Origin: Sedimentisphaera cyanobacteriorum
GTDB taxonomy: Bacteria; Planctomycetota; Phycisphaerae; Sedimentisphaerales; Sedimentisphaeraceae
Direction of reading: 5' to 3'
NCBI RefSeq assembly: GCF_001997385.1
Contig: NZ_CP019633.1
Coordinates: forward strand, 1,230,001-1,262,000
Length of the DNA stretch: 32,000 bases
The notes beneath the pieces are model-generated. The model ran no database searches and had not been told where the DNA came from. It saw only the letters and a list, made by a program, of their open reading frames with translations. Positions 9,628-29,928 of this stretch are shown here, in pieces. The first letter of the stretch is position 1. Every line of letters begins with the position of its first letter. The position numbers and the translations under genes are program-made.

Positions 9628-10236
9628 CTACATATACTCACTGATATTATATTTTTCTTTCCTTAAAAATGAAGATGTAGCTTGTAAGGGATCTTTACTT
9701 TTAGCTAAAAGATCCAACATAGAATCGTGCTTTTGCTGCTCCACTTTATTAAATCTATACTTTATTAATTTAGCCGGATTGCCAGCAACTATCGCATAAG
9801 GAGGAACTTTTTTAGTCACAATCGATCCAGCACCAACAATAGCACCACGGCCGATCTTGATGCCTGCCAATATTATACTTCCTTGCCCTACCCAAACATC
9901 ATCCTCAATAATAGTTTCTAACTCTTCCAATTTATCACGGCCAGAAAAAAACATTGGAGCCCCCACAATATCAAACCGATGGTCTCCTCCTACAATGCTC
10001 ACATATGATGCAATCATTGAATAATTACCAATCTTACAATTAGCATATATATACGCATTCCTGCCAATAAACACATAATCCCCCAATTCCACAGAATAAG
10101 GCTTAAAATTTGATTGCATACCACAACAGTAGCAGTGTCTCCCTAAACGCTTAAACTTATACTTCATCAAAGAGATAAAAAACATAAAAACATCTTTAAG
10201 GAACCACTTCAGTTTTTTTATTAATCTTTGTCTCAT
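9628..10236 (-). CDS. Hexapeptide-repeat (LbH) acyl/acetyltransferase
   Basis: 202 aa. Left-handed beta-helix repeats and C-terminal consensus: [49 protein letters not shown]. Confidence 0.85.
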
Positions 10237-10239
10237 GAA

Positions 10240-12298: not shown

Positions 12299-12320
12299 AA
12301 ATCCTAATTATCTTTATTCC

Positions 12321-12962: not shown

Positions 12963-12979
12963 TTAAGCTTTTACCTCAA

Positions 12980-13951: not shown

Positions 13952-13962
13952 TACTCACCTCT

Positions 13963-15072
13963 CTACTCATTATAATCCGGCGTACGGAATCCGTGTTTCC
14001 TTGAGACGACATCGTGTCTTGCAATTTCCATATCCGCCTCAACCATTTCCTTTACAAGCTCTTTAAAACTTGTGCGCGGATTCCATCCAAGCTGATTTTT
14101 CGACTTTGAAGGATCGCCCAAGAGAGTTTCAACTTCTGCCGGCCTGAAATACTTTGGATCTATCTTTACGACGATATTATCATCAGAATCTCTTTCTTCG
14201 CAAATATGATTTTTGGCAACGGCAATCTCATTTACGCCTTCGCCCTGCCATTCAATATCAATTCCAGCTTCCCTGAACGCAAGCTCTACAAATTCACGTA
14301 CCGAATGCTGCTCGCCAGCAGCAATAACGTAATCATCGGGCTTATCCTGCTGAAGAATCAGCCACATTGCCTCCACATAATCCCTCGCATGCCCCCAATC
14401 TCTTAGCGAATCAATATTGCCGAGATAAAGGCGGGGCTGAAGCCCCATTTTTATTCTAGCGGCGGCTCGGGTGATTTTTCGAGTAACAAAAGTTTCGCCT
14501 CTTAGCGGGGATTCGTGATTGAAGAGTATGCCGTTGCAGGCAAACATATTGTAAGATTCCCGGTAGTTCACGGTTATCCAGTATCCGTATATCTTAGCAG
14601 CAGCATAAGGGGAACGGGGATAGAAAGGCGTGCTTTCATTTTGGGGAATCTCCTGCACCTTCCCGTAAAGCTCTGATGTAGAGGCCTGATATATTCTGGC
14701 TTTATCTGCCAAACCTGCATTCCTCACTGCTTCAAGGATGCGAAGTGTTCCTAAAGCATCTACGTTGCCGGTATATTCCGGTGTTTCAAATGAGACCTTC
14801 ACATGGCTCTGGGCAGCAAGATTATATATCTCATCCGGCCGAACCCGCTCTATAATTTGAGCAACATTTGTTGAGTCTGTCATGTCTCCGTAATGAAGGG
14901 AAAATTTACAGTCCTTTTCATGAGGATCTTGATAGAGATGGTCTATGCGGTCAGTGTTAAACATAGAGCTGCGGCGTTTAATCCCGTGAACCTCATATCC
15001 CTTATTCAAAAGAAACTCAGCTAAATAAGCTCCGTCCTGACCTGTTATTCCTGTTAATAATGCTTTTTTCAT
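13963..15072 (-). CDS. gmd: GDP-mannose 4,6-dehydratase
   Basis: 369 aa. Motifs [79 protein letters not shown] and [21 protein letters not shown]. Confidence 0.95.
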
Positions 15073-15081
15073 AATTCAACC

Positions 15082-16329
15082 CTAAAACATATAATTATTT
15101 TTCTTGCCAGACTGTTGAATTTTATCCAACAATTTATTTAACCGGCCCGATTGAATATGGTTATTTTTTTGAGACAAGACAAATTTTTTAGCTTTTAATC
15201 CAAATTCATGTAGCTCTTCCTTTGATCTTGCAAAAACTTTTTCCAACTCAGCCTTTATTCCCTCCTCAGACTCATCATCGAACAAAAAGACGTAATCATT
15301 ATACTCTTCCGGCATACCTGGAAGCGGGGTCGTTAATAGAGGGGTGCCAGATGCCATATATTCCATATTTTTTGAAGGGAATGAATACTTCGTAAATTCT
15401 TCCTTGCTAGAACGCGGATTGACGAGTAATGTAGCCTCTATTTCCTTTTGAACAATTTCATTATTAGTCAGGATCCCGCCATAAAAAATCCGGCTATCAA
15501 GTGTCATATATTTTCCCATTTCATCTTCCATAGGGCCGTGTCCATAGATATGCAACCTCAAATCATCGCCTTTTATTTTCATAAAAGCTAAAATAAGCTT
15601 CTTAATTCCATATATTTCATTAATTCCCCCAGCATACAAAAGAATTCTTTCTTTTGACTTAGCCTCAAGTTTATTATCTTTAATTACCATTGATTTGTCA
15701 GCCACTCCCTCTATCACTATATAAGGCCTGTTTTTAGGATTAATGACACCATTCATTTGTTCTGTAAGCAAAAGATAACCATCAAAATTCATGAACAATT
15801 TTTTGCTTAACCGAGAAACGACTTTAGCCTTAAAGCTTATATCCTTACTGACAGATGAGCTTAATACGCCTGGTATATCGGTAATAATTCCAACTACTTT
15901 TATTCTATTTAAACGAGTTGCCAATATAGTGGCAAATGACGAAACAAAACCTAAACCGTCGCATAAAATAATTTTATTTTTCCTGTCATAAAGGCCCCAT
16001 ATAAAGACCATAATAAAGCTATAAATAAAAGCTACAACACTTTTCAATAAACCAATATTAATAACATGGCAATAATGGTAATCTATTAAACCAGAGGACT
16101 CTGATGGCAAAAACCATGCTTTTTTTTCATGGGTTAAATCAGAAATTGGCAAAAAAGTCAAGGCTTTAACTCTGTCAACAGCAATATTATCCGCTAATCC
16201 TTCTATAAGTAATTTATAAAATTTAGGAGCCGCTTGAGAAACCTTCGTTTTAGAGGAAAATATAATATCATTGATCACTCTATTGGAACATAAGCTGCCG
16301 ACAAACAATATTTTTTTGTTGTTTTCCAT
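15082..16329 (-). CDS. GT-B glycosyltransferase (GT4-like)
   Basis: 415 aa. C-terminal donor-binding pattern: LLYAGGINEIYGIKKLILAF...LHIYGHGPMEDE...NPRSSKEEFTKYSFPSKNMEYMASGTPLLTT. Confidence 0.78.
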   Translation of the reverse strand: MENNKKILFVGSLCSNRVINDIIFSSKTKVSQAAPKFYKLLIEGLADNIAVDRVKALTFLPISDLTHEKKAWFLPSESSGLIDYHYCHVINIGLLKSVVAFIYSFIMVFIWGLYDRKNKIILCDGLGFVSSFATILATRLNRIKVVGIITDIPGVLSSSVSKDISFKAKVVSRLSKKLFMNFDGYLLLTEQMNGVINPKNRPYIVIEGVADKSMVIKDNKLEAKSKERILLYAGGINEIYGIKKLILAFMKIKGDDLRLHIYGHGPMEDEMGKYMTLDSRIFYGGILTNNEIVQKEIEATLLVNPRSSKEEFTKYSFPSKNMEYMASGTPLLTTPLPGMPEEYNDYVFLFDDESEEGIKAELEKVFARSKEELHEFGLKAKKFVLSQKNNHIQSGRLNKLLDKIQQSGKKNNYMF

Positions 16330-16335
16330 ATGTCT

Positions 16336-16500
16336 TTAATACCACTTGGGGGCAGAAAGAATACTTTGGTAGTTCCAGAAATGCTCATGCCAGACTGGAC
16401 TGTGGAAAAACATGAAATAATCGTAGCTGCGGATAAAAACCAAAAGCCCCAAAAAGACTGTTGCAAAAGTATAACCAGAAGAGAGTAAAATAAAATACAT
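16336..16500 (-). CDS. Possible 54-aa small membrane protein
   Basis: Below the track's length cut-off. Hand translation gives MYFILLSSGYTFATVFLGLLVFIRSYDYFMFFHSPVWHEHFWNYQSILSAPKWY, with one clear hydrophobic helix. It fills the gap between two GT genes, starting 3 nt after the stop codon (16506-16508) of the upstream GT gene and ending 6 nt before the downstream start. No homology evidence. Confidence 0.25.
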   Translation of the reverse strand: MYFILLSSGYTFATVFLGLLVFIRSYDYFMFFHSPVWHEHFWNYQSILSAPKWY

Positions 16501-16505
16501 AAATA

Positions 16506-17768
16506 CTATAATCCTGATAATTCAATGTATGTATTTAAAAGTTTATTTAAATTCGTTTCAGGGTCGTGCCTCTTTTCGGCTGTTTTAACTGAATTGGCTG
16601 AAAGGGTTTGTGCGAAGCTTCTATTTTCAAAAATTTTTCTAATATTTTCTGCAAGCATTTCCACCTCTTCGAACCGGTAAAGCAATCCATCAACCCCTTC
16701 TGAAATAGAATCTGGTACACCACCTACATAAGAAGCGATACAAGGTACTCCTAAAATCTGAGCTTCAGCAACAGAATTTGATTCATTTTCTATTGAAGAA
16801 GGAGAAATAAAAACATGTGCTCTTAGATATTCTGAGATCATATCCTTTTCTCCAAGCGGCCCGAGGAATTCTATATTTTTCTCTAATCCGAATCTTTTAA
16901 TCAGGCCGTTAATATACTTTCCGTACCCCGACAGCCGAATTTTATCTTTCAGGGTTACAGTCTTTGTTATATCAGCTCCCGCCACTCTGATAATCAAAGC
17001 GGGGTAATCATTTTTGAGCAATTTTACAGCTTTAAGAACCTGATGCAATCCTTTAACTGGATAACTTGCCTGGCTCAGGAAAATTGAATGCTTTGAACAC
17101 TTATTAAAATTCCATTTATTTGAATTATAAAATGATTGCCGAAGTATTCTTTTACTTATATCCACAGGAATTTGTTGGTTCCATGTTTTAAAATGACAAT
17201 AGTCCCAGAAAGTCGTACAAATAAAATAATTAACGTTAAAAGCATATTGTTTTTCAATTTCCCCGCGCTGCCGCATTTTTCTTTGCCCATGAAATATCGT
17301 ATCAAAGCGGACAAGATCGCGAAATGTGATATTGCGGATAATATCCCAGAAGCTCATCCCGGCCGTATAATATCTTGCAATCACATTAGTAATTCCCTGC
17401 ATAGAGACAATATACTTATATTCACTGCAGGCTTTTAAGCAGGCTAATCCATGCGCAAATTCTGTGCCGTGAATGTGAATCAGATCCGGCTTAAATTCTT
17501 TGCAAACCTCCTGCCACAGCGGCTCAAGCTCAGAATGATATTTAATATTGCTTCCTTTAATTGGAAGAAGGTAGTAGGTAATGCCGTCAATCGTTTCTTT
17601 TTGAAGCTCATCACCCTGATATACAGCGGCTGCTGCTAAATGAACGTTTTCACTTTTTGCAACAAGCTTGCTGAGATTGTGCATCCAGCCGCCGGTAACC
17701 GGCCTTGAGCCCCCCAACTTCTCCGCCATATCAGGCAGAATAATGTTTGTTATCCAGAGAATATTCAT
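16506..17768 (-). CDS. GT4 glycosyltransferase
   Basis: 420 aa. The N-terminus MNILWITNIILPDMAEKLGG...GGWMH is followed by the C-terminal motif FISPSSIENESNSVAEAQILGVPCIASYVGGVPDSISEGVDGLLY. Confidence 0.85.
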   Translation of the reverse strand: MNILWITNIILPDMAEKLGGSRPVTGGWMHNLSKLVAKSENVHLAAAAVYQGDELQKETIDGITYYLLPIKGSNIKYHSELEPLWQEVCKEFKPDLIHIHGTEFAHGLACLKACSEYKYIVSMQGITNVIARYYTAGMSFWDIIRNITFRDLVRFDTIFHGQRKMRQRGEIEKQYAFNVNYFICTTFWDYCHFKTWNQQIPVDISKRILRQSFYNSNKWNFNKCSKHSIFLSQASYPVKGLHQVLKAVKLLKNDYPALIIRVAGADITKTVTLKDKIRLSGYGKYINGLIKRFGLEKNIEFLGPLGEKDMISEYLRAHVFISPSSIENESNSVAEAQILGVPCIASYVGGVPDSISEGVDGLLYRFEEVEMLAENIRKIFENRSFAQTLSANSVKTAEKRHDPETNLNKLLNTYIELSGL

Positions 17769-17805
17769 ATAATCTTCATAATTTAAAACAAAAGCAACTA
17801 TTAAA

Positions 17806-19041
17806 CTAACTTAAAACGCCAAGTCTTTCAGGGTCAGCATATCTTTTTGCATTATGGAAATCAGCTATCACCCATCCCCAGAAAAGTGCATTAAGAATAA
17901 AACTATAAGGTATGGTAATAGACATCTCAGTATTACCAATCCAAAAATACATTGCTAAAGAAGCTGCGAAAGCCCCTGCGTGCCTGTAATTAAATCTCAT
18001 CATGTCAAGAAAAATCTTGCAAATTTCATAAATAAATAATAAGTAAAAGATAAGACCTATGACACCATAGGCAAATAGAATGTCAACAATATCGTTATGA
18101 GCACGGCCTATTCCAACTCTATTAGCTGCCCCATAACCATTACCAATTATCCACTCAAAAAAAGATTGAGATGAAAGATGATTGAATGTCGCAAGAAAGA
18201 TGCCTATCCTACCAGACCCCTGATCCTTTACTACATTTTCCATCCTCGTTCCAATAGCAAAACCCATCGCTGATAACTCTTTGTATAGAATTGCCAATAT
18301 TATAAACAAAAGGGCTAAGCCTAAAAACGCAAGAAGTTTTCGAGATATTCCAATACCTTTAAATTTAAGAGTGCAAAAATAAAAAGAAGCTACAGCAGTT
18401 AAATAACCAACTAACGGAGCTCGCTTAACTGAAACAATAATAGCCGCAAAAATTAAAACTAAATAAAAAGACTTGACTACCTTTGATTTTAACAACAAAA
18501 TGGGTGGCAAAAAATAGGATATATAAAATATCGCATTATAACCTCTGGTGCTTTCTACTGCAAACCCCTGTCTGATTCTAAAAAAGGTAACCAAATAAAA
18601 ACTAACGGCTACAACAGAAGCAAAAGTAAAATATTTTAAGGTATTAATTTTCAATGATCCAAAATAAGACAATACAATTATCCATAACCAATAACTTATA
18701 TCGATCATTATCATAGGCCATTCTATGGGAGTATAAGCTCTGGAAGCTAACAATGATAGAAACCCAGCAACTGAATACAAAAAACCGTAATATATAAACC
18801 TTCGTTCCTTAACCCAGGCAGTTGAATTTCCTATAAATATTAAAAATGCAATAAGGATAATGACAAGCATATACCATGCATAAGGGGATATGCTTGTACC
18901 TATCTTTTGCTCTAAATACATATTAGCCATATTGTGATGATAACGAAGAAAAGTACTTATCATCAAAATCAAGGCTAACAAAGATTCAATATATAAGATT
19001 GAACCATGTTCCGGATTATTTTTAGTTTTTATATAATTCAT
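17806..19041 (-). CDS. wzy: Polytopic membrane protein, O-antigen polymerase / O-antigen-ligase-like (Wzy family)
   Basis: 411 aa with about 10 or more hydrophobic segments by eye. A periplasmic-loop-like stretch (GNGYGAANRVGIGRAHNDIVDILFAYGVIGLIFYLLF) resembles the Wzy_C motif. ATGA overlap with the upstream GT2 gene. Confidence 0.72.
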   Translation of the reverse strand: MNYIKTKNNPEHGSILYIESLLALILMISTFLRYHHNMANMYLEQKIGTSISPYAWYMLVIILIAFLIFIGNSTAWVKERRFIYYGFLYSVAGFLSLLASRAYTPIEWPMIMIDISYWLWIIVLSYFGSLKINTLKYFTFASVVAVSFYLVTFFRIRQGFAVESTRGYNAIFYISYFLPPILLLKSKVVKSFYLVLIFAAIIVSVKRAPLVGYLTAVASFYFCTLKFKGIGISRKLLAFLGLALLFIILAILYKELSAMGFAIGTRMENVVKDQGSGRIGIFLATFNHLSSQSFFEWIIGNGYGAANRVGIGRAHNDIVDILFAYGVIGLIFYLLFIYEICKIFLDMMRFNYRHAGAFAASLAMYFWIGNTEMSITIPYSFILNALFWGWVIADFHNAKRYADPERLGVLS

Positions 19042-20042
19042 AATTCTACCTTGGAATATCTCATCTTGTTTGCCAAACTTTGAATAATGACATAAAAGCG
19101 AGGGCTTGACAAGATAAGAAAAGCATATATCTTCTTTGTAACAGTAAGCTTTTTCGACTTGCCTATCTTTTTAATGTTGGTTTTGAAAAAGTCAGCTACT
19201 GATTTGCATATATTCTCATCATTAATCTTAAATGCATTGTAAAAACATCCTACACCGCATTCGATTGCAAGTTTAAGGCATACGTGGGAAAAGCATGGAT
19301 ATTTCACTACTGAAAACTCATACCTTTCTGTAAAACCAAGAAAAATGTGAAACTTTTTATTTGGATCTTTATAATTGAATGATGCACTTGTATTTCTAAC
19401 CAAATAAAAATAAAGAGGTTCTGCTATATACTTAACCTTGTGACACTTTTCAAAGTAATAATATGTAGTAGCCAGATCTTGACAATACGTGCGTCCGACA
19501 GGATACCTAACATCTTTAAATAAGTCATTTTTATATAATTTATTCCACGCCTGGCTTCCTATATTATCATATAAGATTTCACGCATAATATCATAATTAT
19601 TATATTCTTTTGATTCTCCCAGCCAATTCTGCACCTCTATTTTCCCATTATCTTCATAAACTCTGTAATTATCACAAATCACAAGATCAGCTGCGGTCTC
19701 CTCGGCAACTTCTATAAGTCTTTGATACATATTGCTGCAAATATAATCATCACTGTCAACAAAGCCTACATAATCTCCTTTCGCAGCCTCCAATCCAACG
19801 TTTCTAGCATCGGAAAGACCTCCATTTTCTTTATGGATCACAACAATACGGCTATCTTTCTGAGCATATTTATCGCATATCTCACCGCAATTATCAGGAG
19901 AACCGTCATCAACCAGAATCAGTTCAAAATCGGCAAATTCTTGACCTAATATGCTTTCAACACATTTTTGCAAATAATTTTCTACCTTATATATAGCTAC
20001 TATTACACTTAACTTCGGGCTATTTATTTTTGTGTCAATCAT
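19038..20042 (-). CDS. GT2 glycosyltransferase (GT-A fold)
   Basis: Track ORF 19038-20093 starts at TTG. I prefer the ATG at 20042 (MIDTKINSPK), which is preceded by AAGGAG (20055-20050) with a 7-nt spacer. Motifs: LSVIVAIYKVENYLQKCVESILGQEFADFELILVDDGSPDNCGEICD...GGLSDARNVGLEAAKGDYVGFVDSDDY. Confidence 0.9.
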   Translation of the reverse strand: MIDTKINSPKLSVIVAIYKVENYLQKCVESILGQEFADFELILVDDGSPDNCGEICDKYAQKDSRIVVIHKENGGLSDARNVGLEAAKGDYVGFVDSDDYICSNMYQRLIEVAEETAADLVICDNYRVYEDNGKIEVQNWLGESKEYNNYDIMREILYDNIGSQAWNKLYKNDLFKDVRYPVGRTYCQDLATTYYYFEKCHKVKYIAEPLYFYLVRNTSASFNYKDPNKKFHIFLGFTERYEFSVVKYPCFSHVCLKLAIECGVGCFYNAFKINDENICKSVADFFKTNIKKIGKSKKLTVTKKIYAFLILSSPRFYVIIQSLANKMRYSKVEL

Positions 20043-20053
20043 AAGATAACTCC

Positions 20054-21211
20054 TTAAAACTGCCATTGTTTGAGCGGAAATGCCCTGCTGCAAGGACCGC
20101 TCTTAGAGCAGTTCAATTTGCCATGCAGCAAAGATTCAGATAAATCAATAAAACTTTCTGCGGCATTCTCTGGATTCCATTCTTGCTGTAAGGTTTTATA
20201 TGCATTTTTTCCCAACATTTTACGTAAACCTTCATCCAATAAAAGGCTTTCTGCCTTTTTGCAGAAATCATCTATATTCCCGTATTTATAAACAAGCCCA
20301 TTACGATTATTATTTATTAAAAACGGAACTGATCCGATTGCATGGCTTGCCAAAACCGCGCATCCGCTGTTCATTGATTCATTGAGCACTGCCCCCCAGC
20401 CTTCATTATAGTCGCTTGTAAAAAGGAATATGTCGCTGGCATACATATAATCCCTGACCCTTTTATGGGGCATCGCTCCCAGCATTGAGATTTTTTCATC
20501 TAACTGAGAAGACTGAATCATACTTCTTATTTTATTTTCATAATTCCCCGTTCCTATCATATTAATATGGAAATCATACCCCTTGCTCCTGAGATATTTG
20601 GCTAAATAAACAGCATATTCAGGGTGCTTCCAATCAAGGAAACGACCGCACCAAAGAATTTCTAGCCGCTCTTTGTCAGAATTGCGTCTTTCTTGCAAAT
20701 CTCGCTTGATAAACTCGGGAAAATAGCCCCATTTAAAACATTTTTGAGGGTAAGCTCCCACTAAAGCACAATCTCCTGCGGTATAAGCACTTGCGCAAAG
20801 CATATAAAGGTTGCTGCTGCGGTATTTAGTATGCCGTTTCAATAAGCTAATCAGAACCCTTGGGTCGAGAATTCTCCAAATCCCTCTCTTGAAGATTCTT
20901 TCAGAATATCTGAATGTGAGCTTGTTATGCTTCATTCTTTCCGTTACATATACTTCTGGTGCAGAACCATGTATAACCACATCACTTTCAAATGCAAGCT
21001 CCATGGCTTTAACTGCATTCTCTTTACTATCATAAACAGTCAAAATAAAAGGGTGCTGCTTGTTCATATCCGAGAATCCAAGTTTTAGTCTTTCTTTAGC
21101 AAGGGGTTTTGTTGCAACGAAAGTAAAACTACCTCCAAGTAATTTATACATTTCTCTGCAGAAACTGAACTGATGATGGTTCATAAAATTTGAATAAAAG
21201 GTAATTCGCAA
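20054..21211 (-). CDS. GT-B glycosyltransferase (GT1/GT4-like)
   Basis: 385 aa with a TTG start. The N-terminus MRITFYSNFMNHHQFSFCREMYKLLGGSFTFVATKPL is followed by the C-terminal motif FLFTSDYNEGWGAVLNESMNSGCAVLASHAIGSVPFLINNNRNGLVY. Confidence 0.75.
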   Translation of the reverse strand: MRITFYSNFMNHHQFSFCREMYKLLGGSFTFVATKPLAKERLKLGFSDMNKQHPFILTVYDSKENAVKAMELAFESDVVIHGSAPEVYVTERMKHNKLTFRYSERIFKRGIWRILDPRVLISLLKRHTKYRSSNLYMLCASAYTAGDCALVGAYPQKCFKWGYFPEFIKRDLQERRNSDKERLEILWCGRFLDWKHPEYAVYLAKYLRSKGYDFHINMIGTGNYENKIRSMIQSSQLDEKISMLGAMPHKRVRDYMYASDIFLFTSDYNEGWGAVLNESMNSGCAVLASHAIGSVPFLINNNRNGLVYKYGNIDDFCKKAESLLLDEGLRKMLGKNAYKTLQQEWNPENAAESFIDLSESLLHGKLNCSKSGPCSRAFPLKQWQF

Positions 21212-21248
21212 ATCTTTGCTTTCTAATTAGTCTTTAAATATTATAACA

Positions 21249-22193
21249 TTACCAATAACACCCATTTTCAATTTTTTTGTAGTTTTTAGGTTTTTCCTCT
21301 GCCAAAGGATAGACCCAGTTTTCATTAAATTGATGAGATATAACAGAGCTATTCTCCCAACGGCCACCTTTTATGCCAAAGAGAATCTGAGTTGCTCCAC
21401 CCATATGTATTGCCTGCTTTCCCAAACTTTTCACATGAGCGGCAAGTGGAAAGCCGTATGCCCCGCATCCGATTATCGCCACATCAAAATCTGTATTGTT
21501 AACATTATACTTCATATGTTCTAAAGCCTCAAACCAATCTTTAAATTCGCTCTTTTCGCCGGCGATTGTCTGAACAGCTTTTATTGTTAATAATTCAAAA
21601 TCCGGCAATATATCGGGGTTATTAAACAGATTTTGTCTTTTTTTATACTGGTTTATAATAGTTTGTTCAAATGGGTGGATGACCAAAACTTTTTTACCTT
21701 TCAAGTTTTTAGACCAAGGAAAATTATGATAGTAAGGTTCTAAAGAAACTAATTCGGCTATTTCAGCTTCAGCATATTTTTTTAGAATGTAATCTTCTTG
21801 TGATGTTCGTAAAACACCTATCAAATCCGCTTTTTTTGTTGAATCAATCATCAAATCAGTAAAATTATCTAAAACTCTGGGGTTGGCATCAAATATCCCA
21901 GCATTTATTCTTGCACTGTTAATTAAAGCATCAGAATACGATGACCTGAAATTAAATTCTTGTTCTATGCATTGCTTAACAATATTAGTTTCCACAGTCC
22001 CATAGCGACCAGCAAAAAATGGATTCCCTTCAATGATTGATCTTGATATAAGATTATTACCTTCCTTTCTATTTAATATATTTACACCTGCATATTTTTT
22101 AATTTTTATCTTTGATTTTATAAGTTTTTTTTCTAAAAAAATACGGACTTTATTTCGAAACAAGTAAACAAGGTACTCAATTTTATTTAGCAT
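21249..22193 (-). CDS. Uncharacterised protein, possibly a GT-D-fold (DUF1792-like) glycosyltransferase
   Basis: 314 aa. The motifs FFAGRYGTVETNIV and VAIIGCGAYGFPLAAHVKSLGKQAIHMGGATQILFGIKGGRWE recall DUF1792-type proteins found in polysaccharide loci. The assignment is from memory of the motif only. Confidence 0.35.
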   Translation of the reverse strand: MLNKIEYLVYLFRNKVRIFLEKKLIKSKIKIKKYAGVNILNRKEGNNLISRSIIEGNPFFAGRYGTVETNIVKQCIEQEFNFRSSYSDALINSARINAGIFDANPRVLDNFTDLMIDSTKKADLIGVLRTSQEDYILKKYAEAEIAELVSLEPYYHNFPWSKNLKGKKVLVIHPFEQTIINQYKKRQNLFNNPDILPDFELLTIKAVQTIAGEKSEFKDWFEALEHMKYNVNNTDFDVAIIGCGAYGFPLAAHVKSLGKQAIHMGGATQILFGIKGGRWENSSVISHQFNENWVYPLAEEKPKNYKKIENGCYW

Positions 22194-22220
22194 ATTATTT
22201 CCAAAAAATTACTATCTAAC

Positions 22221-22970
22221 TCATTTAGATCTAATCCAGCACAAAATGGGAATTATGTGGGGCTTTATTAAGCCTTTACACTTAGCGATGAAGCTTGGTT
22301 TTTGCGGTTCGTAAAAACCTCTTTCATAAAAATCAAAGTTAATTCCATGTTTTTCACAAACAGGTACAATACTTTGAAACCATTTACCTCTACCAATTGC
22401 TTGCTCATGATGTATTAAAGGCTTATAGCTTCCCCAAATTTCTAGGCTATTTTTTCGAGCAACTACATCTCCCAATGTCTCAAAATCCCATGGGCTGAAA
22501 TTAGGCCTCAGCACTTTAAGCAAAGACTCTTTCTTCCATATAGAAACCTGGGCATTAATCCTATACGGCTCCCCCGGTAAAACTTCACCAAAAATTTGGC
22601 CATCTTGAGGTAGTGTTTTGGGTTTTGGGCAAGCATGCAGTCCCAAACAGTCTATACCATTAGCTTTTATAAATTCATAAGCCGACTCAATTGCCGCATC
22701 ATCTACTAGCTCAATGATAAAAAAATCTTCCAAAATAATCACTACATAATCTTCTTCTATCATCTCAAGCATTTTAGAAACTGTTAATCCCCAGCAAGTG
22801 TCTTCACCTATTTTTAAATCTGTTACCCAATCAATATCTGCGCTTTTATAATTAGTTCCAAGATAAACCGGATATCTGCAATTTGGCCAATACTCTTTAA
22901 ATAACTTAAAAAAAGCCTGCCAAAGAAAACTATATTTATCGAAGGACGGCACTAAAACAGCCATACTCAT
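22221..22970 (-). CDS. Uncharacterised cluster protein (possible glycosyl- or other transferase)
   Basis: Track ORF 22221-22985 starts at TTG; ATG codons lie at 22970 and 22964. The sequence MSMAVLVPSFDKYSFLWQAFFKLFKEYWPNCRYPVYLGTN...VVIILEDFFI resembles small proteins seen in capsule/O-antigen loci. No recognisable catalytic motif. Confidence 0.3.
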   Translation of the reverse strand: MSMAVLVPSFDKYSFLWQAFFKLFKEYWPNCRYPVYLGTNYKSADIDWVTDLKIGEDTCWGLTVSKMLEMIEEDYVVIILEDFFIIELVDDAAIESAYEFIKANGIDCLGLHACPKPKTLPQDGQIFGEVLPGEPYRINAQVSIWKKESLLKVLRPNFSPWDFETLGDVVARKNSLEIWGSYKPLIHHEQAIGRGKWFQSIVPVCEKHGINFDFYERGFYEPQKPSFIAKCKGLIKPHIIPILCWIRSK

Positions 22971-23006
22971 AATGAAACCTTTCAAAATGATGGTTATAGA
23001 AATTAT

Positions 23007-24563
23007 TCACAAACATAATCGTTTAATAGCATTTTTCCGCAAACTGAATAATTTGTAAAATATACTTTGTAATTTTTCTTGAAGGTAAATTCGTTCATAC
23101 CCATTCAAACCAATAAAGTATATCCCCAAAGAACACCAGACACAAGATATTAATGAAACAACTGCAAATTTCAAGAAACCGCTTTTGTCGACTAATGTTA
23201 TAAACGCAAGAGGCAGTGAGAACAATAGAACTCCAATTATTCTTAATTGCACTTTCTTTAAGTAATTCAGGATATCAAAACCAATTTTAAATTTTAAGAT
23301 TATCATCAAAGCAACCATAATTATTACTTCAGACAAAGCAAAGTTAATCAGACCCCAAACAGCTTGAAAACCAATATGAAACATAACACCAGAAACAACA
23401 AGGCATAAGAGACAGGAGAACACTTTGAATGTTTCGTATTCCTTAATTTTGCCGCTTGAATTCAGAAGAATCCCGGAAGTGCCCCTTAGAGTTTGCACTA
23501 AAACAGCTATAATCATCACTCTACAAAAAATCACTGTATTAGCCGGCACATCTCCCAACCAAAGCTTCAAGAGAAATTCTGTTTCGAGCAAAATGGGGAC
23601 TGAAGGCAAAAGCATTAAGAAGAAAGTATATTTAGACATTCCATAGACTATCTGCAAAACCCTTTGCCAGTCCCCACCGCCATGTCCTTTAAAAACTTGA
23701 GGAGCCGATACAGTATTAAGAGTTTGCGTAAAAGTAATCAATAAACCCGTTAATTGCTTTGCAATGCCAAAGGATGCGTTGACTACCGTACCGAAAAAGT
23801 AATTTAATACCATAGCAAGCCCTTGGCTATTGCCAACGGCAGCAGAAGAACCTAATAAAGACCAAGCAGAGAAGCTTAACATTTCCTTATATTTATGCCA
23901 CTTAAAAGAAATTTTCCACTTAACCAAATCTTTATATTTAATCCTGCAATAAATAAAGTAAAGGAATGAACAAGTTCCCCAAACCAATGCTGTTAAAACA
24001 GCATAAATTTTCAGTTTATTGCTAAGGAAAAAGATCAGAGAAAATGCTACTATGAATCTCATGAAAGAGGATAATGTTTCAATTAGAACCCTAATTAAAA
24101 AATTTTCCTTAGCTGAAATCAAACCTCGGTAAGGTATCACAGAAACATTTAGAATCGCTGCTAAAACTGAAAAGTGGTACACAAAAACAGCATCATCCAA
24201 TTTGCCTTCTTCTACATTAAGAAAATTGTATACATAATAAAGACCAATGGTTTCGGCTAAGAGAAATATTAAAAGAGCAAATGACAAATGAATTACAAGA
24301 CTAATATTAAATATACTATTTGAATCACCTTTAGCTCCCTTACCCAATTCGTTGGCAATAAAACGATGCGTAGAACCAGATATGGAGATATTCAGAATAT
24401 TAAGCAGCATAACAATTCCGCCAACTACATGATAAAGACCATAATCAGATGCGCCAAGATTTTGCAAGACAAGCCTTGCAGTAAACAGCCCTAACAAAGT
24501 ACTAATTATTAGTCTAATATAAAGCAATAAGCTATTTAATGCTATTCTTTTATTTCCGCTCAA
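23007..24563 (-). CDS. wzx: Oligosaccharide-unit flippase, MOP/PST superfamily (Wzx)
   Basis: 518 aa and hydrophobic throughout (about 12-14 helices by eye). The N-terminus NKRIALNSLLLYIRLIISTLLGLFTARLVLQNLGASDYGLY is typical of Wzx/PST flippases. TTG start with AGGA 6 nt upstream. Confidence 0.85.
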   Translation of the reverse strand: MSGNKRIALNSLLLYIRLIISTLLGLFTARLVLQNLGASDYGLYHVVGGIVMLLNILNISISGSTHRFIANELGKGAKGDSNSIFNISLVIHLSFALLIFLLAETIGLYYVYNFLNVEEGKLDDAVFVYHFSVLAAILNVSVIPYRGLISAKENFLIRVLIETLSSFMRFIVAFSLIFFLSNKLKIYAVLTALVWGTCSFLYFIYCRIKYKDLVKWKISFKWHKYKEMLSFSAWSLLGSSAAVGNSQGLAMVLNYFFGTVVNASFGIAKQLTGLLITFTQTLNTVSAPQVFKGHGGGDWQRVLQIVYGMSKYTFFLMLLPSVPILLETEFLLKLWLGDVPANTVIFCRVMIIAVLVQTLRGTSGILLNSSGKIKEYETFKVFSCLLCLVVSGVMFHIGFQAVWGLINFALSEVIIMVALMIILKFKIGFDILNYLKKVQLRIIGVLLFSLPLAFITLVDKSGFLKFAVVSLISCVWCSLGIYFIGLNGYERIYLQEKLQSIFYKLFSLRKNAIKRLCL

Positions 24564-24571
24564 ATGATGTC

Positions 24572-24832
24572 CTATATAAGTATCAAATTTAAGTGAAGAT
24601 TACTTAATTGAAGCTTGAAAGAGCTGAAAATATCCTGAATCGCAGGCTTATTGCATATATCAGCTTGAACAAAGCTATAGCGAACCGAATCCTCAACCTC
24701 TTTGAGCGAGGACAGGTTGCCGGCGTAGGTGAGCTTGTCTATGTTAAGCACACTATGGTCGGTATTTTTTATTATATGTCTTATTACGGCCGAGCCAATA
24801 AAGCCCGCACCGCCTGTTACTATTATTTTCAT
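24572..24832 (-). pseudogene. rfbB: 5' fragment of dTDP-glucose 4,6-dehydratase (rfbB/rmlB), only ~73 homologous codons
   Basis: The 86-aa [76 protein letters not shown] matches the RmlB N-terminus ([14 protein letters not shown]...DKLTYAGN...ADIC). It then diverges into [13 protein letters not shown] and stops. Full-length RmlB is about 350 aa. Confidence 0.8.
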
Positions 24833-24871: not shown

Positions 24872-26173
24872 CTATGCCTTCCAAACCTTTTTCTTCGTTC
24901 CGCGTAGGCGGTCGCAGGCGTTTCTTGTATCGATTACGAGCTGGGCGTTATCGGTTATCATCTGGTAGTCGTAGTGTGAGTGGTCTGTTGCGATAAGCAC
25001 AGCATCGAAGCCTTTGAGCATATTTGCCGTAATCTTTTTGCTCTTCATCCGCAGGTCGTATTTTCTCTGCTTCCAAGTTTCGGGGATATACGGGTCGTTA
25101 TAGCTCACTTTCGCCCCCTTATCCCGCAGGCGTTCAATCAGCTCAAGCGAGGGAGACTCCCGCACATCGTCTATATCCTTCTTATACGCAAGGCCGAGGA
25201 CGAGGATTTTCGCCCCGTTTATCGCCTTCTTATGGCTGTTCAGCGCTTCCATCGTTCTGTGGATCACGTATTCGGGCATTGAGGTGTTTATCTCGCCGGC
25301 AAGCTCGATGAACTTGGTCGGGAGGCCATACTGCCTCGCCCGCCATGTGAGGTAGAACGGGTCTATGGGGATGCAGTGGCCGCCGAGGCCGGGGCCGGGA
25401 TAGAATGCCTGGAAGCCGAAGGGCTTTGTTTTGGCGGCGTTTATCACGCTCCATACGTCTATGCCCATGCGGTCGAAGAGCATCTTGAGCTCGTTTACCA
25501 TAGCGATGTTGATGCAGCGGTAGGTGTTTTCGATGATCTTGGCGGCCTCGGCCACCTCGCAGCTCTCCACCGGCACAAGCTGCTCGATTGCCCAGCTGTA
25601 AATCTGCTCTGCCATTTTGAGCGAGGGCTTATTCAGCCCGCCTACAACCTTGGGGATTGTGCCTGTGCGGAAGGATTTGTTGCCCGGGTCTTCGCGTTCG
25701 GGAGAGTATGCGAGGAAGAAATCCTCGCCGGCAGTGAGGCCTGAGCCGTGCTCGAGAATGGGGAGCATAAGCTCTCTGGTTGTGCCCGGGTAGGTTGTGC
25801 TTTCGAGAACGATGAGCTGGCCTTTCCGCATATTCTCGGCGATCGTGCGGCAGGTGTTTTCCACGTACGTCATATCCGGTTCGCGGTTTTCCGTAAGCGG
25901 GGTGGGTACGCAAATCAGCAGGCAGTCCGGCTCGTTTAAGCGGGACATATCGGTTGTGCCCTCGAAGCGGCCTGTATCAACCATACCTGCAACCTGCTCG
26001 TTTGGAATGTGCTTGAGCGGGCTGCTTCCTGCATTGATGCGTTCTACGCTCTGCTGATTTACATCGAAGCCCAGCACATTCGCCCCGCCTTCGGCAAATT
26101 CCCTTGCCAGCGGCAGGCCTACATAACCAAGGCCAACTATCCCCACGTAAGGGGCTTTATCGCTTTTACTCAT
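24872..26173 (-). CDS. Nucleotide-sugar 6-dehydrogenase, UDP-N-acetylhexosamine dehydrogenase-like (WbpA/WbpO/TviB family)
   Basis: 433 aa. Motifs VGIVGLGYVGLPLAREFAEGG, ICVPTPL, YSPEREDPGN and GPGLGGHCIPIDPFYLTW (catalytic Cys) are present. Substrate specificity cannot be fixed from sequence alone. Confidence 0.88.
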   Translation of the reverse strand: MSKSDKAPYVGIVGLGYVGLPLAREFAEGGANVLGFDVNQQSVERINAGSSPLKHIPNEQVAGMVDTGRFEGTTDMSRLNEPDCLLICVPTPLTENREPDMTYVENTCRTIAENMRKGQLIVLESTTYPGTTRELMLPILEHGSGLTAGEDFFLAYSPEREDPGNKSFRTGTIPKVVGGLNKPSLKMAEQIYSWAIEQLVPVESCEVAEAAKIIENTYRCINIAMVNELKMLFDRMGIDVWSVINAAKTKPFGFQAFYPGPGLGGHCIPIDPFYLTWRARQYGLPTKFIELAGEINTSMPEYVIHRTMEALNSHKKAINGAKILVLGLAYKKDIDDVRESPSLELIERLRDKGAKVSYNDPYIPETWKQRKYDLRMKSKKITANMLKGFDAVLIATDHSHYDYQMITDNAQLVIDTRNACDRLRGTKKKVWKA

Positions 26174-26218
26174 AACAATACGTCCTGTTTTTGCTGATCA
26201 GAGTTTATGATGCAGAGC

Positions 26219-26227
26219 ATTATAACA
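26219..26227 (-). promoter_or_regulatory. Candidate extended -10 element (TGTTATAAT) upstream of the dehydrogenase gene
   Basis: The minus strand reads gatTGTTATAATgctc, ending 45 nt upstream of ATG 26173. No convincing -35 element. AGGAC lies 8 nt before the ATG. Confidence 0.3.
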
Positions 26228-26234
26228 ATCAGCC

Positions 26235-26417
26235 TTATAATTTCACTAACTTTTCTGCGTTTAACAATATTAAAATAATATATTTTCCCCCTGAGCTGTA
26301 AACCCTGCTTGAACAGCGTATTAAAACTGCTTTGCCGGAAAGCTTTTTGCCAGGGTAAGGCAGAAGCAAGTCGTCCTTTGCAGCCTTCAGCCATTCATTT
26401 GCGGGGCAGTTTTTCAC
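26235..26417 (-). pseudogene. Degraded HEPN-like remnant (partner of the frameshifted MNT copy)
   Basis: The ORF starts at a GTG that overlaps the MNT' stop (GTGA). The first ~17 aa (KNCPANEWLKAAKDDL) resemble the HEPN N-terminus; compare AAKQWLEKSFHNLSAAEIL in the intact copy. The remainder has no HEPN features and no Rx4H motif. Confidence 0.35.
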
Positions 26418-26747
26418 AGCAAACGCACCCCTCTATCTAAGAGCTCTTTGGAAAATGAGCTTCCGATCTCAATAAATCTTCCGTGCATACGTTTTGTATG
26501 GACAATTAAATCTATCGGCACGCTTTTTCTGATATCCCTGATTTTTCGAGCAACTTTCAAATATATCTCGTTTTTCTCGTCCCAGTTTTGGGGTATATAA
26601 TCATCTTTAGTTACAACGTACAGATCAATATCGCTGTCCTGATCGGGGCGGCCTTCGGCGTACGAACCGAATAAGGATCACACTTTCAGGATTAAGCGGC
26701 TTCAGGTTTCCCACTATTTCCGATTTTATTTTTTCTATATTAACCAC
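26414..26747 (-). pseudogene. Second minimal nucleotidyltransferase (MNT) copy, disrupted by a 1-nt frameshift
   Basis: From GTG 26747 the frame reads VVNIEKIKSEIVGNLKPLNPESVIL. An extra base at ~26672 then shifts the frame, producing a stop at 26627-26625. Reading past the extra base restores FGSYAEGRPDQDSDIDLYVVTKDDYIPQNWDEKNEIYLKVARKIRDIRKSVPIDLIVHTKRMHGRFIEIGSSFSKELLDRGVRLL*, a complete MNT with the GS...DxD motif. Confidence 0.65.
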
Positions 26748-26750
26748 TAC

Positions 26751-27149
26751 TTACTCAGAATCTATACATAAGATATTGATAACATTAATGTGCAGGCGTT
26801 TGGATAGAGCTAAAATATTAGCAATTTCAGTTCTATCAGGCATAATTAGACCACCTATCGGATAACGCTCTTCAACATAGAATTTTGTAGCCTTTGCAAG
26901 CAACAACACATCTGCATCTGAAATACAGATGCAATCAGAAACAAGTTCATAAAGTTCAACAAGATTGTGTGTTTTAGGGATTCTGGCATTTTCAAAAGCC
27001 ATAAAAGCCTTTAGCATTTTCTCCAAAGCCTGTTGCAACTCTTGGCCAATTACATCAGTATAATGATTGGCATTCATCAAAATTTCGGCGGCAGAAAGAT
27101 TATGAAAAGATTTTTCCAGCCATTGTTTTGCAGCAGTTTTATTTGGCAT
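26751..27149 (-). CDS. HEPN-domain protein (putative RNase toxin of an MNT-HEPN pair)
   Basis: Track ORF 26751-27200. The likely start is ATG 27149 (MPNKTAAKQWLEKSFHNLSAAEIL), overlapping the MNT stop by 11 nt. It contains ENARIPKTHNL, an R-x4-H motif, and a FYVEERYP segment typical of PF05168-like HEPN proteins. Confidence 0.78.
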   Translation of the reverse strand: MPNKTAAKQWLEKSFHNLSAAEILMNANHYTDVIGQELQQALEKMLKAFMAFENARIPKTHNLVELYELVSDCICISDADVLLLAKATKFYVEERYPIGGLIMPDRTEIANILALSKRLHINVINILCIDSE

Positions 27150-27477
27150 ACAACACCACACCATGATCAATAAGGTTTGTCTTGAAGAAGTAATCTTCAC
27201 GAGTCTCTAAAAACTGTTTTCCAGAAGAAAAGACATCAAATCCTATTTTATACTTCTTAATCAATGTCCTCAAAGCCATCAGGGCATCAGTATCAAATTC
27301 GCATCGCTGAGACTCATATCCTGCTTTAACGAGAAACAAATCGATATCGCTATCTTCATTGGCAGTTCCGCTTGCATAGGAGCCAAAGAGGATTATCTTT
27401 TCAGGATTAAGCGGTTTTAGACTCTCTACTATTTCCGATTTTATTTTTTCGATCTCAACCATAAATATCTGTTGCAT
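27139..27477 (-). CDS. Minimal nucleotidyltransferase (MNT, NTP_transf_2-like; putative antitoxin)
   Basis: 112 aa. KIILFGSYASGTANEDSDIDLFLV matches the G-S...D-x-D polymerase-beta-type motif. ATG 27477 overlaps the epimerase stop (TAATG). By comparison with the second copy, the true start may be MVEIEKIK at 27462. Confidence 0.85.
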   Translation of the reverse strand: MQQIFMVEIEKIKSEIVESLKPLNPEKIILFGSYASGTANEDSDIDLFLVKAGYESQRCEFDTDALMALRTLIKKYKIGFDVFSSGKQFLETREDYFFKTNLIDHGVVLYAK

Positions 27478-28529
27478 TAGACGTTATAAAACTCGCGATA
27501 CCACTGCACAAAGCGTCTTACGCCGTCTTGTATCGGCGTGTTTGGTCGGTAGCCGAGGTCTTCTGTAAGGTCTGTAACGTCTGCCCATGTAGCAGGCACG
27601 TCTCCGGGCTGGATGGGCATCATATTCTTCTGAGCCTGTTTTCCCGCGGCTTTCTCGATCGCCTCGATAAAGTCCATAAGCCTTACAGGCGAGCTGTTGC
27701 CTATGTTATACACTTTGAACGGGGCTATCGAGCTGCCCGGGTCGGGATTCATTCCAGACCAGTCTTCCCTGCCCTTGGCCGGATTATCAATAACGCGTTT
27801 AACGCCTTCTACAATATCATCTATATATGTAAAATCACGCTTCATATCGCCGTAGTTATACACATCTATCGGCCTGCCCTCAAGGATCGCCTTGGTGAAT
27901 ATAAACAGAGCCATATCCGGTCTTCCCCAAGGCCCGTAAACAGTGAAGAATCTCAGGCCGGTTGTCGGTATGCTGTATAGGTGGCTGTAGCAGTGCGCCA
28001 TAAGCTCGTTGCTCTTTTTGCTGGCGGCATACAGGCTCACTGGATGGTCAATATTATCGGAGGTGCTGAAGGGCATTTTCTCATTCAGCCCGTAAACGCT
28101 GGAGCTGCTGGCATAGGCGAGATGCTCTATCTCGCTTTTTCTGCAAGCCTCAAGGATGTTGATAAAGCCCACAATATTCGCATCCACATACGCCCTTGGA
28201 TTTTCGAGGCTGTAGCGAACGCCGGCCTGAGCGGCAAGATTGCACACTCGGTCGAACTTTTCCTGCTCGAAAAGCTTTTGCAGATTCTCGCCGTTTTCAA
28301 GCTTTAGCTTTATGAAGCGATAGTTTTCGTATTTCGAGCTCTGAATCAGCTTTCCGTATTCGATATCTTCCGGAGAGATGCCGGTTTCACGGAGCCGGCC
28401 GTACTTAACGTTGACGTCGTAGTAGTCGTTTACACTGTCTAAACCTACAACCTCATCTCCCCTTTCAAGGAGCACTCTTGCAAGGTGAAAACCGATGAAT
28501 CCGACTGTTCCGGTAACTAAAATTTTCAT
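27477..28529 (-). CDS. NAD-dependent nucleotide-sugar 4-epimerase, UDP-glucuronate 4-epimerase-like (Cap1J/GAE/LpsL family)
   Basis: 350 aa. Motifs [69 protein letters not shown] and [15 protein letters not shown]. First gene of the minus-strand locus. Confidence 0.88.
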
Positions 28530-28842: not shown

Positions 28843-29844
28843 GTGAATAAGGATTTGGCACGCCAGCTGATAGAAGCAGGCGTACACTTCGGTCACGGAG
28901 CATCCCGCTGGCATCCTAAGATGGCACCGTACATCTTCGCCAAACGCGGAATGATCCACATTATTAACGTGAAGGAAACACTCAAGGGGCTGCTGATAGC
29001 TAAAAAGCTCCTTACCATGGTGGTTTCTTCGGGCAAAGACGTGATTTTCGTAGGCACGAAGCGTCAGGCAAAAAAGGCCGTTACAGACGCAGCCAAACAG
29101 ACCGGAATGCACTTTATCCCAAACCGCTGGCTTGGAGGTACGCTGACAAACTTCCGTACAATCCGTCAGAGGGTTCTGAGGATGGAACAGCTCGAAAAGA
29201 TGGAGCAGGACGGGTCTATCGAGAGCGAAAGCAAGAAGATGGGCGCTATGCTCAAGCGTGAGCTTAACAAGATCAAATCGAATCTTGACGGTCTCCGCGG
29301 CCTCAACAAACTCCCGGGAGCGGTAGTTGTTGTTGACGTAATGAAAGAGAAGAACGCCCTGAGTGAAGCAAAGAAGCTCAAGATCCCTACCATCGGAATC
29401 ATTGATACAAACTCAAATCCGGATATGGTGGATGTTGCGATACCGGGCAATGATGACTCAACAAAGGCTGTTGACATTATTCTTCACGAGCTCGCTTCTG
29501 CTGTTGCAGAAGGCAAAACGCTTGCACGCATTCAGGCTGCTTCAGAAGATGAAGGCAAAACCAAGACCAGAAGCAAGAGAAAGCCGAGAAAGCCTCAGGA
29601 CAAACGTGCTCCCGCCCCGTCAGATAAAGGCGAAAAGAAGAAATCTGAGCCCAAAGACGGCGATAAGAAAGCTTCTGAAGCTCAGGAACAAAAACCTGAA
29701 AAAACAGCTGAGCAGAAGCCTGAGCAGGAAACAGAATCCAAGAAAGAAGATTCTGAACCCAAACAGGCTCAAGATTCAAAGCCTGAAGGTCAGGAAAAAA
29801 GCTCTGAAGAGAAAAAGGGCGAAAAACCTGAGCCTTCCGTCTAA
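28843..29844 (+). CDS. rpsB: 30S ribosomal protein S2 with a long K/E/P-rich C-terminal extension
   Basis: 333 aa, GTG start, AGGAG 8 nt upstream. Motifs: LIEAGVHFGHGASRWHPKM, IHIINVKETL, FVGTKRQA, RWLGGTLTNF and IIDTNSNPD. The last ~100 aa are low-complexity (KTRSKRKPRKPQDK...EQKPEKTAEQKPEQETESKKED...). Confidence 0.95.
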   Translation: MNKDLARQLIEAGVHFGHGASRWHPKMAPYIFAKRGMIHIINVKETLKGLLIAKKLLTMVVSSGKDVIFVGTKRQAKKAVTDAAKQTGMHFIPNRWLGGTLTNFRTIRQRVLRMEQLEKMEQDGSIESESKKMGAMLKRELNKIKSNLDGLRGLNKLPGAVVVVDVMKEKNALSEAKKLKIPTIGIIDTNSNPDMVDVAIPGNDDSTKAVDIILHELASAVAEGKTLARIQAASEDEGKTKTRSKRKPRKPQDKRAPAPSDKGEKKKSEPKDGDKKASEAQEQKPEKTAEQKPEQETESKKEDSEPKQAQDSKPEGQEKSSEEKKGEKPEPSV

Positions 29845-29928
29845 GAGAGCAAGACTTCTGAGAATGCTACCTCTGCTGAGAATCAGTCTTAAAGGGCTGT
29901 AGAAAATTTTGTTAGAATGTAATTTAAT

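Follow-up and report, generated by a model that had tools for sequence, protein, structure and literature searches.

HepT/MntA toxin-antitoxin (TA) systems of type VII have been described in Shewanella oneidensis (SO_3166/SO_3165), Aphanizomenon flos-aquae, and Legionella pneumophila (PMC7641770, PMC11586414, PMC13000451). Their HepT toxins are defined by an R-phi-xxx-H motif together with an adjacent conserved tyrosine (Tyr), which is oligo-AMPylated (PMC13000451). Integrase-free "core" defense hotspots located between conserved genes have been reported in Pseudomonas aeruginosa (PMC10250203), E. coli (PMC10121019), and Acinetobacter (PMC11723918), and as a general phenomenon such hotspots are already known. 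Here we analyzed a window of 32,000 nucleotides (nt) from the 2.95-Mb, single-contig genome of Sedimentisphaera cyanobacteriorum (G000:C1:1230001-1262000; G-numbers denote genomes, G000 being the window's own, and L-numbers denote loci), in which genes for minimal nucleotidyltransferases (MNTs) and HEPN-domain proteins are wedged between an epimerase gene and a dehydrogenase gene. We consider it likely that this wedge is a two-module MNT-HEPN array of the classical PF05168 type, lodged at an integrase-free hotspot beside the nucleotide-sugar genes with which a surface-glycan locus begins. It represents a known module type at a recurrent lodging site for selfish or defense genes, and no new system.

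Structure and boundaries of the array

On the minus strand, the order of features based on open reading frames and sequence is epimerase, MNT1, HEPN1, a broken MNT2, an HEPN2 stub, a leader, and the dehydrogenase. The upstream anchor of the wedge (27477-28529, minus strand) encodes an NAD-dependent, UDP-glucuronate-4-epimerase-like nucleotide-sugar epimerase of 350 amino acids (PF01370, 7.9e-53; PF16363, 1.1e-50), which shares 93% amino acid identity with its counterpart in G001, a genome of the same genus, and 71-79% across the order. The downstream anchor (24872-26173, minus strand) encodes a WecC/TviB-like nucleotide-sugar dehydrogenase of 433 amino acids (TIGR03026, 442.7 bits vs. a cut-off of 189.8), the best sub-threshold equivalogs being those of the WecC/TviB-like type.

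Comparison of G000 and G001 at the DNA level revealed sharp limits. Identity of 87% extends through the epimerase to position 27481, at the stop codon, and then breaks abruptly. No homology was detected across the wedge; it resumes exactly at 26310 and continues at 89% to 24873 (the dehydrogenase stop), where it breaks again. The variable glycan genes start past this stop. The two inserts are unrelated (1,166 nt in G000 vs. 1,620 nt in G001), and the alignment places the wedge proper at 26311-27476, a length of 1,166 nt.

A conserved segment of 137 nt (26174-26310, minus strand) precedes the dehydrogenase. Despite the different inserts beside it, its identity to G001 is 91% over the full length and reaches 95% in the upstream 100 nt. 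A promoter scan located two promoter-like sites within it (26302-26275 and 26246-26219, the latter with the extended -10 element TGTTATAAT), and these are both of the promoter-like sites found in the region. Its TTGTTATAAT core recurs in the cassette-free spacer of G017, a member of another taxonomic family. Because the segment is conserved in G001 next to a different insert, and its core is present at the empty junction of G017, we interpret it as the resident leader and promoter of the dehydrogenase rather than as cassette debris, and it should not be annotated as a cassette remnant. On the same grounds we reject the idea that the TA remnant supplied this promoter. An earlier note on this DNA had extended the cassettes to 26235; the final 76 nt of that span fall within the leader. 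Its description of the cassettes as lying inside the operon also needs nuance, as the wedge has the epimerase stop on one side and, on the other, the conserved leader of the dehydrogenase with its promoter-like sites. No structured RNA was detected in either the wedge or the leader (no Rfam match at E <= 1). Capture of an integron or CALIN type was considered and rejected: the HEPN1 stop and the MNT2 start are 3 nt apart, which leaves no space for an attC site, and the wedge contains no inverted repeats.

The wedge also differs in composition from its flanks. GC content is 36.6% in MNT1, 35.3% in HEPN1, and 40.7% in MNT2, compared with 49.3% in the epimerase, 55.0% in the dehydrogenase, and 46.2% in the genome (standard deviation 5.1 per 400 nt). 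The cassettes, at 35-41% vs. 49-55%, are indeed more AT-rich than the flanking genes, as had been noted before. GC content is similarly low (36.2%) in the downstream glycan genes (9628-24563).

MNT1 (27139-27477, minus strand, 112 amino acids) is an intact, antitoxin-like minimal nucleotidyltransferase, which matches PF01909 (1.7e-10, 41.6 bits) and PF18765 (4.5e-10, 40.0 bits). Its translation contains the motif G32-S33-x10-D44-I-D46 (GSx10DxD), and the protein is 57% identical to its orthologue in G003, a genome of another genus in the same family. Against the NCBIfam MntA equivalog NF047752, it scored 33.1 bits, under the cut-off of 60. The ATG at 27477 overlaps the epimerase stop (TAATG), as previously pointed out, but translation more likely starts at the second ATG (27462, "MVEIEK..."), which matches the start position of the homologues and of MNT2.

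HEPN1 (26751-27149, minus strand, 132 amino acids) is the intact, toxin-like partner, a classical HEPN-domain protein (PF05168, 2e-16, 60.5 bits vs. a cut-off of 22). These profile matches of MNT1 and HEPN1, all above the gathering thresholds, confirmed the two families proposed in the earlier note. The ATG of HEPN1 overlaps the MNT1 stop by 11 nt (ATGCCAAATAA), and the same adjacent, co-directional, and overlapping arrangement is found in G003, G006, and most of 80 related loci. In PADLOC analysis, the MNTs matched the defense candidate PDC-S09, MNT1 with 33.8 bits and the first of the two G001 MNTs with 114 bits; these matches are of candidate level only, and PADLOC returned no match for HEPN1. 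For the HEPN1 gene (26751-27149), the public protein collection holds only an 83-amino-acid product from the same contig (P0002, 100% identity, 62% of the query), and the gene seems to have been called too short in the source annotation.

The AlphaFold model of HEPN1 has five helices and a predicted local distance difference test (pLDDT) score of 91.5. Its top PDB matches are all HEPN proteins, the best being 1WOL, 1UFB, and 2HSB (template-modeling (TM) scores 0.69-0.78); validated HepT toxins reach TM scores of 0.4-0.57. In an alignment of 40 sequences, H61 and Y96 are invariant, K59 corresponds to a basic residue in 38, and R95 corresponds to R or K in 39. Q40, E43, K44, and K47 are invariant there too, but this is in part a consequence of the peptide pattern with which the loci were retrieved and is not evidence. 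By comparison, R56 of the "RIPKTH" stretch is R in 3 of the 40 homologues, with K in 16 and P in 10. The local sequence A-R-I-P-K-T-H-N-L has Ile rather than a polar residue after the R and is without Tyr at H+2, and Pfam profile search gave no PF01934 match for HEPN1. HEPN1 is a member of the classical PF05168 MNT-HEPN family and not of HepT/MntA. An Rx4H motif had been taken in the earlier note to make a competent RNase toxin plausible. Although R-IPKT-H is present, RNase competence of HEPN1 is not established by it, because the R is shared by so few homologues and the HepT signature R-phi-xxx-H-x-Y is missing.

Module 2 follows immediately. MNT2 (26414-26747, minus strand) is a pseudogene of a second MNT subfamily, both halves of which match MNT1 and PF18765. 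It starts with a GTG 4 nt past the HEPN1 stop (3 nt in between), and a single extra base close to 26672 (GTGATCCTT[A]TTCGG), outside any homopolymer, shifts its frame. Read through the shift, the product has 110 amino acids and is 60% identical to the intact orthologue of G003 and 45% to MNT1. The HEPN2 remnant (26311-26417, minus strand, about 35 codons), which has no Pfam match, was recognized by tblastn with the HEPN partners of MNT2-type genes; its GTG at 26417 overlaps the MNT2 stop (GTGA). Only "ANEWLKAAKDDL" (26402-26367) matches the HEPN N-terminal helix (tblastn, E 2e-5 to 3e-4). Directly after it stands "LLPYPGK", which resembles the C-terminal GLLPYGKP motif in a short match with E of about 1. 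This arrangement, of which the LLPY match is a weak part, is suggestive of an internal deletion of about 80 codons that would have removed the conserved/catalytic core, the 3' end being lost as well. The deleted HEPN2 core is evidence, independent of the frameshift, that module 2 is decaying. Thus, the earlier picture of an intact first copy and a decayed second copy holds, with one extra base in MNT2 and a deleted core in HEPN2.

Occupancy of the junction in related genomes

To describe the junction in relatives, we begin with the taxonomic family, which comprises seven genomes (G000-G006). G001 contains, exactly in the slot, two intact MNT + HepT pairs (PF01934/PF18765, with RNxxxHxY; PF01934 scores of 72 and 91 bits). 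In G002, also of the same genus, a wecB-like gene is present at the junction. In G003, the same two genes as in G000 flank orthologues of both cassette types, in a permuted array of dehydrogenase, an MNT2-like gene (solo and intact), an MNT1-like gene, an HEPN1-like gene, and epimerase. The HEPN1 proteins of G000 and G003 cluster in a maximum-likelihood tree (support 93/91). In G004, G005, and G006, the epimerase does not adjoin the dehydrogenase, and in G006 the same module type is found in unrelated contexts, beside a HipA-like gene and near recO. The only empty case is G017, whose junction is a 350-nt spacer.

It had been expected that the junction would be empty in relatives. Instead, it is usually occupied, by HepT/MntA pairs in G001, a wecB-like gene in G002, and both cassettes in G003, with G017 alone being empty. 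The earlier note had also held that the same two cassettes standing in place in distant relatives would speak for an ancient and fixed arrangement rather than an insertion. Both types do occupy the slot in another genus (G003), but they are not fixed, as they are replaced in congeners. What marks this site as a hotspot is that flanks 87-89% identical in G000 and G001 enclose unrelated inserts, and that the junction holds wecB in G002, a permuted array in G003, and nothing in G017.

The epimerase was found in 24 of 121 sampled genomes of the order. In eight of these 24 (G000, G001, G003, G011, G041, G061, G101, and G103), MNT and/or HEPN genes, confirmed with Pfam, are located within 1.5 kb of it. 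The order of genes is dehydrogenase, MNT, HEPN, and epimerase in G061; epimerase, solo MNT, dehydrogenase, MNT, and a truncated HEPN of 59 amino acids in G103; epimerase, HEPN, and MNT in G011; and epimerase, HepT, and MNT in G101. G041 (L121 864-3340, on G041:C108) has MNT + HepT pairs on both sides of the epimerase, each of them between the epimerase and a nucleotide-sugar dehydrogenase; two of the three HepT genes of this genome sit beside the epimerase. In G011 and G101, the sole PF18765-type MNT of the genome adjoins it.

Among the 68 PF18765 matches detected in about 93 Mb (24 genomes), at least 12 are located within 3 kb of the epimerase, compared with about 0.1 expected by random placement. 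MNT/HEPN genes are thus found beside the epimerase at roughly 100 times chance expectation. Because the genomes come from a single order and are not independent of each other, this figure overstates the number of events; there are at least five distinct configurations, spread over four taxonomic families.

G000 itself holds only three MNT/HEPN loci, including the wedge. One of the others is a canonical MntA-HepT pair (GLRNRLIHGYD; G000:C1:319608-320241), just downstream of a CysN-like GTPase gene, and the other is a solo MNT beside a decayed PF05168 fragment (G000:C1:2814013-2814615). A second kind of small tenant at these junctions is a "23S rRNA-intervening-sequence protein" of about 116 amino acids (a four-helix bundle), which was observed between UDP-glucose dehydrogenase and epimerase in four relatives of the order (L112 2627-2977, L117 2557-2916, L120 892-1251, and L123 ~1100-1456). 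The L112 copy matches PF05635 (2e-41, bAvd-like), and the others were assigned by sequence likeness. A similar gene follows gmd in L053 (8949-9335), a locus of G103, which is a Planctomycetota metagenome-assembled genome (MAG) of the same order.

Outside the phylum, the 80 loci with HEPN1 relatives belong mostly to Campylobacterota, Spirochaetota, and Bacteroidota, besides Planctomycetota themselves. In five of the 80, an epimerase at least 60% identical is present within 7 kb, compared with about 0.2 expected. In L055 (Campylobacteraceae), dehydrogenase, MNT, HEPN, and epimerase (72% identical) abut one another in this order, and a similar neighborhood was observed in Sulfurimonas (L034 and L037), Leptospirales (L072), and Prolixibacteraceae (L070). 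Genes resembling the present glycan locus occur in 12 of the 80 loci and in none of the remaining 68. Full-text search of the literature found no paper tying HEPN/MNT to nucleotide-sugar or O-antigen loci, and a search on defense hotspots and capsule loci returned general hotspot papers only, none of which contains "capsule locus".

In L070 (3230-4700 and 6000-8200), a Prolixibacteraceae MAG, the 3' end of the epimerase is repeated four times (a 140-nt family, 63-96% identity). The repeats are followed by small cassettes in one direction (a DUF559-like gene, a VapC-like PIN pair, and an MNT-HEPN module), with mosaic repeated spacers between them. The locus has the look of an array of cassettes assembled through recurrent recombination at the end of the epimerase.

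Capture, decay, and alternative explanations

The earlier note proposed insertion followed by duplication or serial capture and then decay. Serial capture and decay agree with our results, but duplication does not. Identity between MNT1 and MNT2 is 45%; each of them resembles its G003 counterpart more closely (57% and 60%, respectively) and has its own cross-phylum relatives. A recent tandem duplication of the modules is excluded by these values. Because MNT1 and MNT2 belong to different subfamilies, we conclude that two captures took place.

The DNA likeness of the two genes is confined to the first ~73 nt. Repeat search identified a 73-nt segment at the 5' end of MNT1 (27389-27461, minus strand; repeat family D1) with 81% DNA identity to its partner at the 5' end of MNT2 (26674-26746, minus strand). 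In the first 23 codons after the start, third-position identity between paralogues is 61% in G000 and 70% in G003, compared with 26-43% between orthologues. The first 37 nt of the tandem MNT genes of G003 (L018 4879-4915 and 5315-5351) are identical at 36 of 37 positions. This pattern indicates gene conversion, that is, homogenization within the genome, or else a constraint at the DNA or RNA level on the cassette heads.

Four defective modules were found beside sugar genes: module 2 of G000, with both genes broken, the MNT with truncated HEPN of G103, the solo MNT of G103, and the solo MNT2 of G003. No intact HEPN with a broken MNT was seen among the modules beside these sugar genes. Decay that begins with HEPN would be expected of a pair in which HEPN does the harm, and the series of intact pair, truncated HEPN, solo MNT, and both broken can be regarded as a natural experiment supporting HEPN toxicity. 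Two-step erosion of chromosomal TA systems is known in Photorhabdus, where inactivation of the toxin precedes loss of the antitoxin (PMC13617665).

Considering these data, a scenario for the locus can be outlined. Modules 1 and 2, being of different subfamilies, were captured separately, most likely by recombination in the highly conserved flanks. Module 1 most likely forms the end of the epimerase transcript, as no more than 15 nt separate it from the epimerase stop and its frames overlap; a sequence scan detected no terminator-like site between the epimerase and module 1. By analogy with characterized HEPN/MNT systems, the HEPN dimer may act as a growth-arresting RNase, which the MNT would keep inactive by nucleotidylylation and/or binding, and the module could persist as an addiction or abortive-infection element. 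In module 2, the HEPN2 core would have been deleted first and the MNT2 frameshift acquired later, leaving the module dead. Orthologues in place in G003, together with HepT/MntA pairs or a biosynthetic gene in congeners, point to long tenancy combined with turnover.

Several points weigh against this scenario, in addition to the non-independence of the genomes behind the enrichment. The literature searched contained no toxicity, RNase, or AMPylation data for the PF05168 subfamily of HEPN1. HEPN1 has neither the acceptor tyrosine of HepT nor its R-phi-xxx-H-x-Y signature, and its closest solved structures are uncharacterized structural-genomics proteins. Co-transcription with the epimerase is deduced from geometry only, and recombination in the flanks is likewise deduced. 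The strong cross-phylum tie to nucleotide-sugar genes could instead reflect a role in glycan metabolism.

According to this last possibility, the MNT-HEPN pair contributes to the glycan pathway itself or to its control and is no selfish TA module; the nucleotidyltransferase might modify a sugar, a lipid carrier, or an enzyme, and HEPN might process operon mRNA or bind nucleotide-sugars. Such a role would be compatible with the strong tendency of the pair, seen repeatedly in Planctomycetota, Campylobacterota, Bacteroidota, and Leptospirales, to lie near genes for nucleotide-sugar dehydrogenase, epimerase, and GDP-fucose, the tight start/stop packing with sugar genes, the missing canonical RNase motif of HEPN1, and the uncharacterized state of its PDB relatives in PF05168. 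However, the slot holds non-homologous tenants (PF05168-type, PF01934-type, solo MNTs, the 23S-intervening-sequence protein, wecB, and degT) or none, modules decay in place (module 2 of G000 and the HEPN of G103), and the module type is found in unrelated contexts elsewhere (G006, and the 68 of 80 HEPN1-family loci that have no glycan-locus-like genes). For these reasons we regard a role in glycan metabolism as unlikely, and the foreign composition of the wedge also speaks against it.

The modules might, on the other hand, be functionless and neutral hitch-hikers on horizontally exchanged glycan-locus DNA, in which case they would simply be decaying and the hotspot would reflect the high recombination of polysaccharide loci. 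The dead state of module 2, the low GC content common to the wedge and the whole variable glycan region, and the observation that chromosomal TA systems are often lost without having stabilized the genes around them (PMC13617665) are all consistent with this idea. Yet in module 1 the overlapping frames, the nucleotidyltransferase motif, and the HEPN residues invariant in the family are all intact, with ~47-57% identity to the orthologues of G003, which implies long purifying selection. Moreover, the enrichment at the junction is specific to MNT/HEPN rather than extending to arbitrary accessory genes, and decay that begins with HEPN implies that HEPN activity mattered. It is therefore rather improbable that the modules are mere passengers, and we prefer to view the wedge as an MNT-HEPN array at a defense-type hotspot.

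This preferred view could be extended to other phyla. Junctions around a UDP-glucuronate-epimerase-type gene and the nucleotide-sugar dehydrogenases next to it might constitute a cross-phylum landing pad for MNT-HEPN modules, in which the flanks serve as homology arms for the transfer of small cassettes among distant bacteria, and expression of the lodged module at the end of the sugar-gene transcript ties survival to expression of the glycan locus; the flanking sugar genes have 60-77% protein identity even between phyla. We hold this extension to be tentative and doubtful. If it is true, a lodged module would guard against capsule loss under phage pressure, and the homogenized 5' ends of tandem MNT genes may be a trace of cassette-shuffling recombination.

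A bounded, integrase-free slot, occupied at ~100 times chance and recurring in other phyla, offers a testable case of where and how chromosomal TA and defense cassettes settle. In addition, a PF05168-type HEPN without the canonical RNase/AMPylation signature provides an inexpensive test of whether "classical" MNT-HEPN pairs are TA systems at all.

Two further features were observed near the array. Between the dehydrogenase and wzx, a stump of 86 codons (24572-24832) corresponds to the Rossmann part at the N-terminus of an enzyme of the RmlB/epimerase type (PF01370, 1.8e-12, profile positions 1-64), a scar where the variable glycan region begins. At 29600-29900, the K/E-rich C-terminal tail region of rpsB has only 59-71% DNA identity to G001, compared with 88-98% in the rest of the gene, and this tail appears to be fast-evolving.

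Comparison with known systems

Like the HepT/MntA systems, the array described here shows the MNT-then-HEPN order, overlapping frames, a GSx10DxD motif in the MNT, and a small, all-helical HEPN protein of the same superfamily. The cassettes of G001 at the same junction are genuine PF01934 HepT pairs with RNxxxHxY. On the other hand, HEPN1 belongs to PF05168 and not to PF01934; its R is unconserved (3 of 40) and is not followed by a polar residue, and there is no Tyr at H+2 to take AMP. MNT1 reaches 33 bits vs. the MntA cut-off of 60, and the similarity of HEPN1 to HepT toxins is limited to TM scores of 0.4-0.57.

The structural-genomics proteins ST0689 (1WOL), TT1696 (1UFB), AF0298 (2HSB), and TM0613 (1O3U) belong to PF05168 and have the same fold as HEPN1. 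Their TM scores are 0.69-0.78 (1WOL, 1UFB, and 2HSB) and 0.53-0.58 (1O3U), and 1UFB is also matched by sequence (E = 0.002). They differ from HEPN1 in sequence (14-23% identity), and none has a demonstrated activity, so that they are no guide to the function of HEPN1. With TA erosion in Photorhabdus (PMC13617665), the modules share the early loss of the toxin-like gene and the persistence of remnants in a conserved neighborhood; the Photorhabdus systems are of type II and come from one genus, whereas the present cases are MNT/HEPN modules and only four in number.

The closest parallel to the site itself is provided by the core defense hotspots, which also have conserved flanks, sharp bounds, and variable, low-GC contents of the TA or defense type that differ between close relatives, with no integrase or attC. 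The slot described here is tiny (1.2-1.6 kb), has biosynthetic genes on either side at the start of a glycan locus, and holds almost only MNT/HEPN tenants. Unlike those hotspots, it is encountered again next to homologous sugar genes of other phyla, rather than within the pan-genome of one species.

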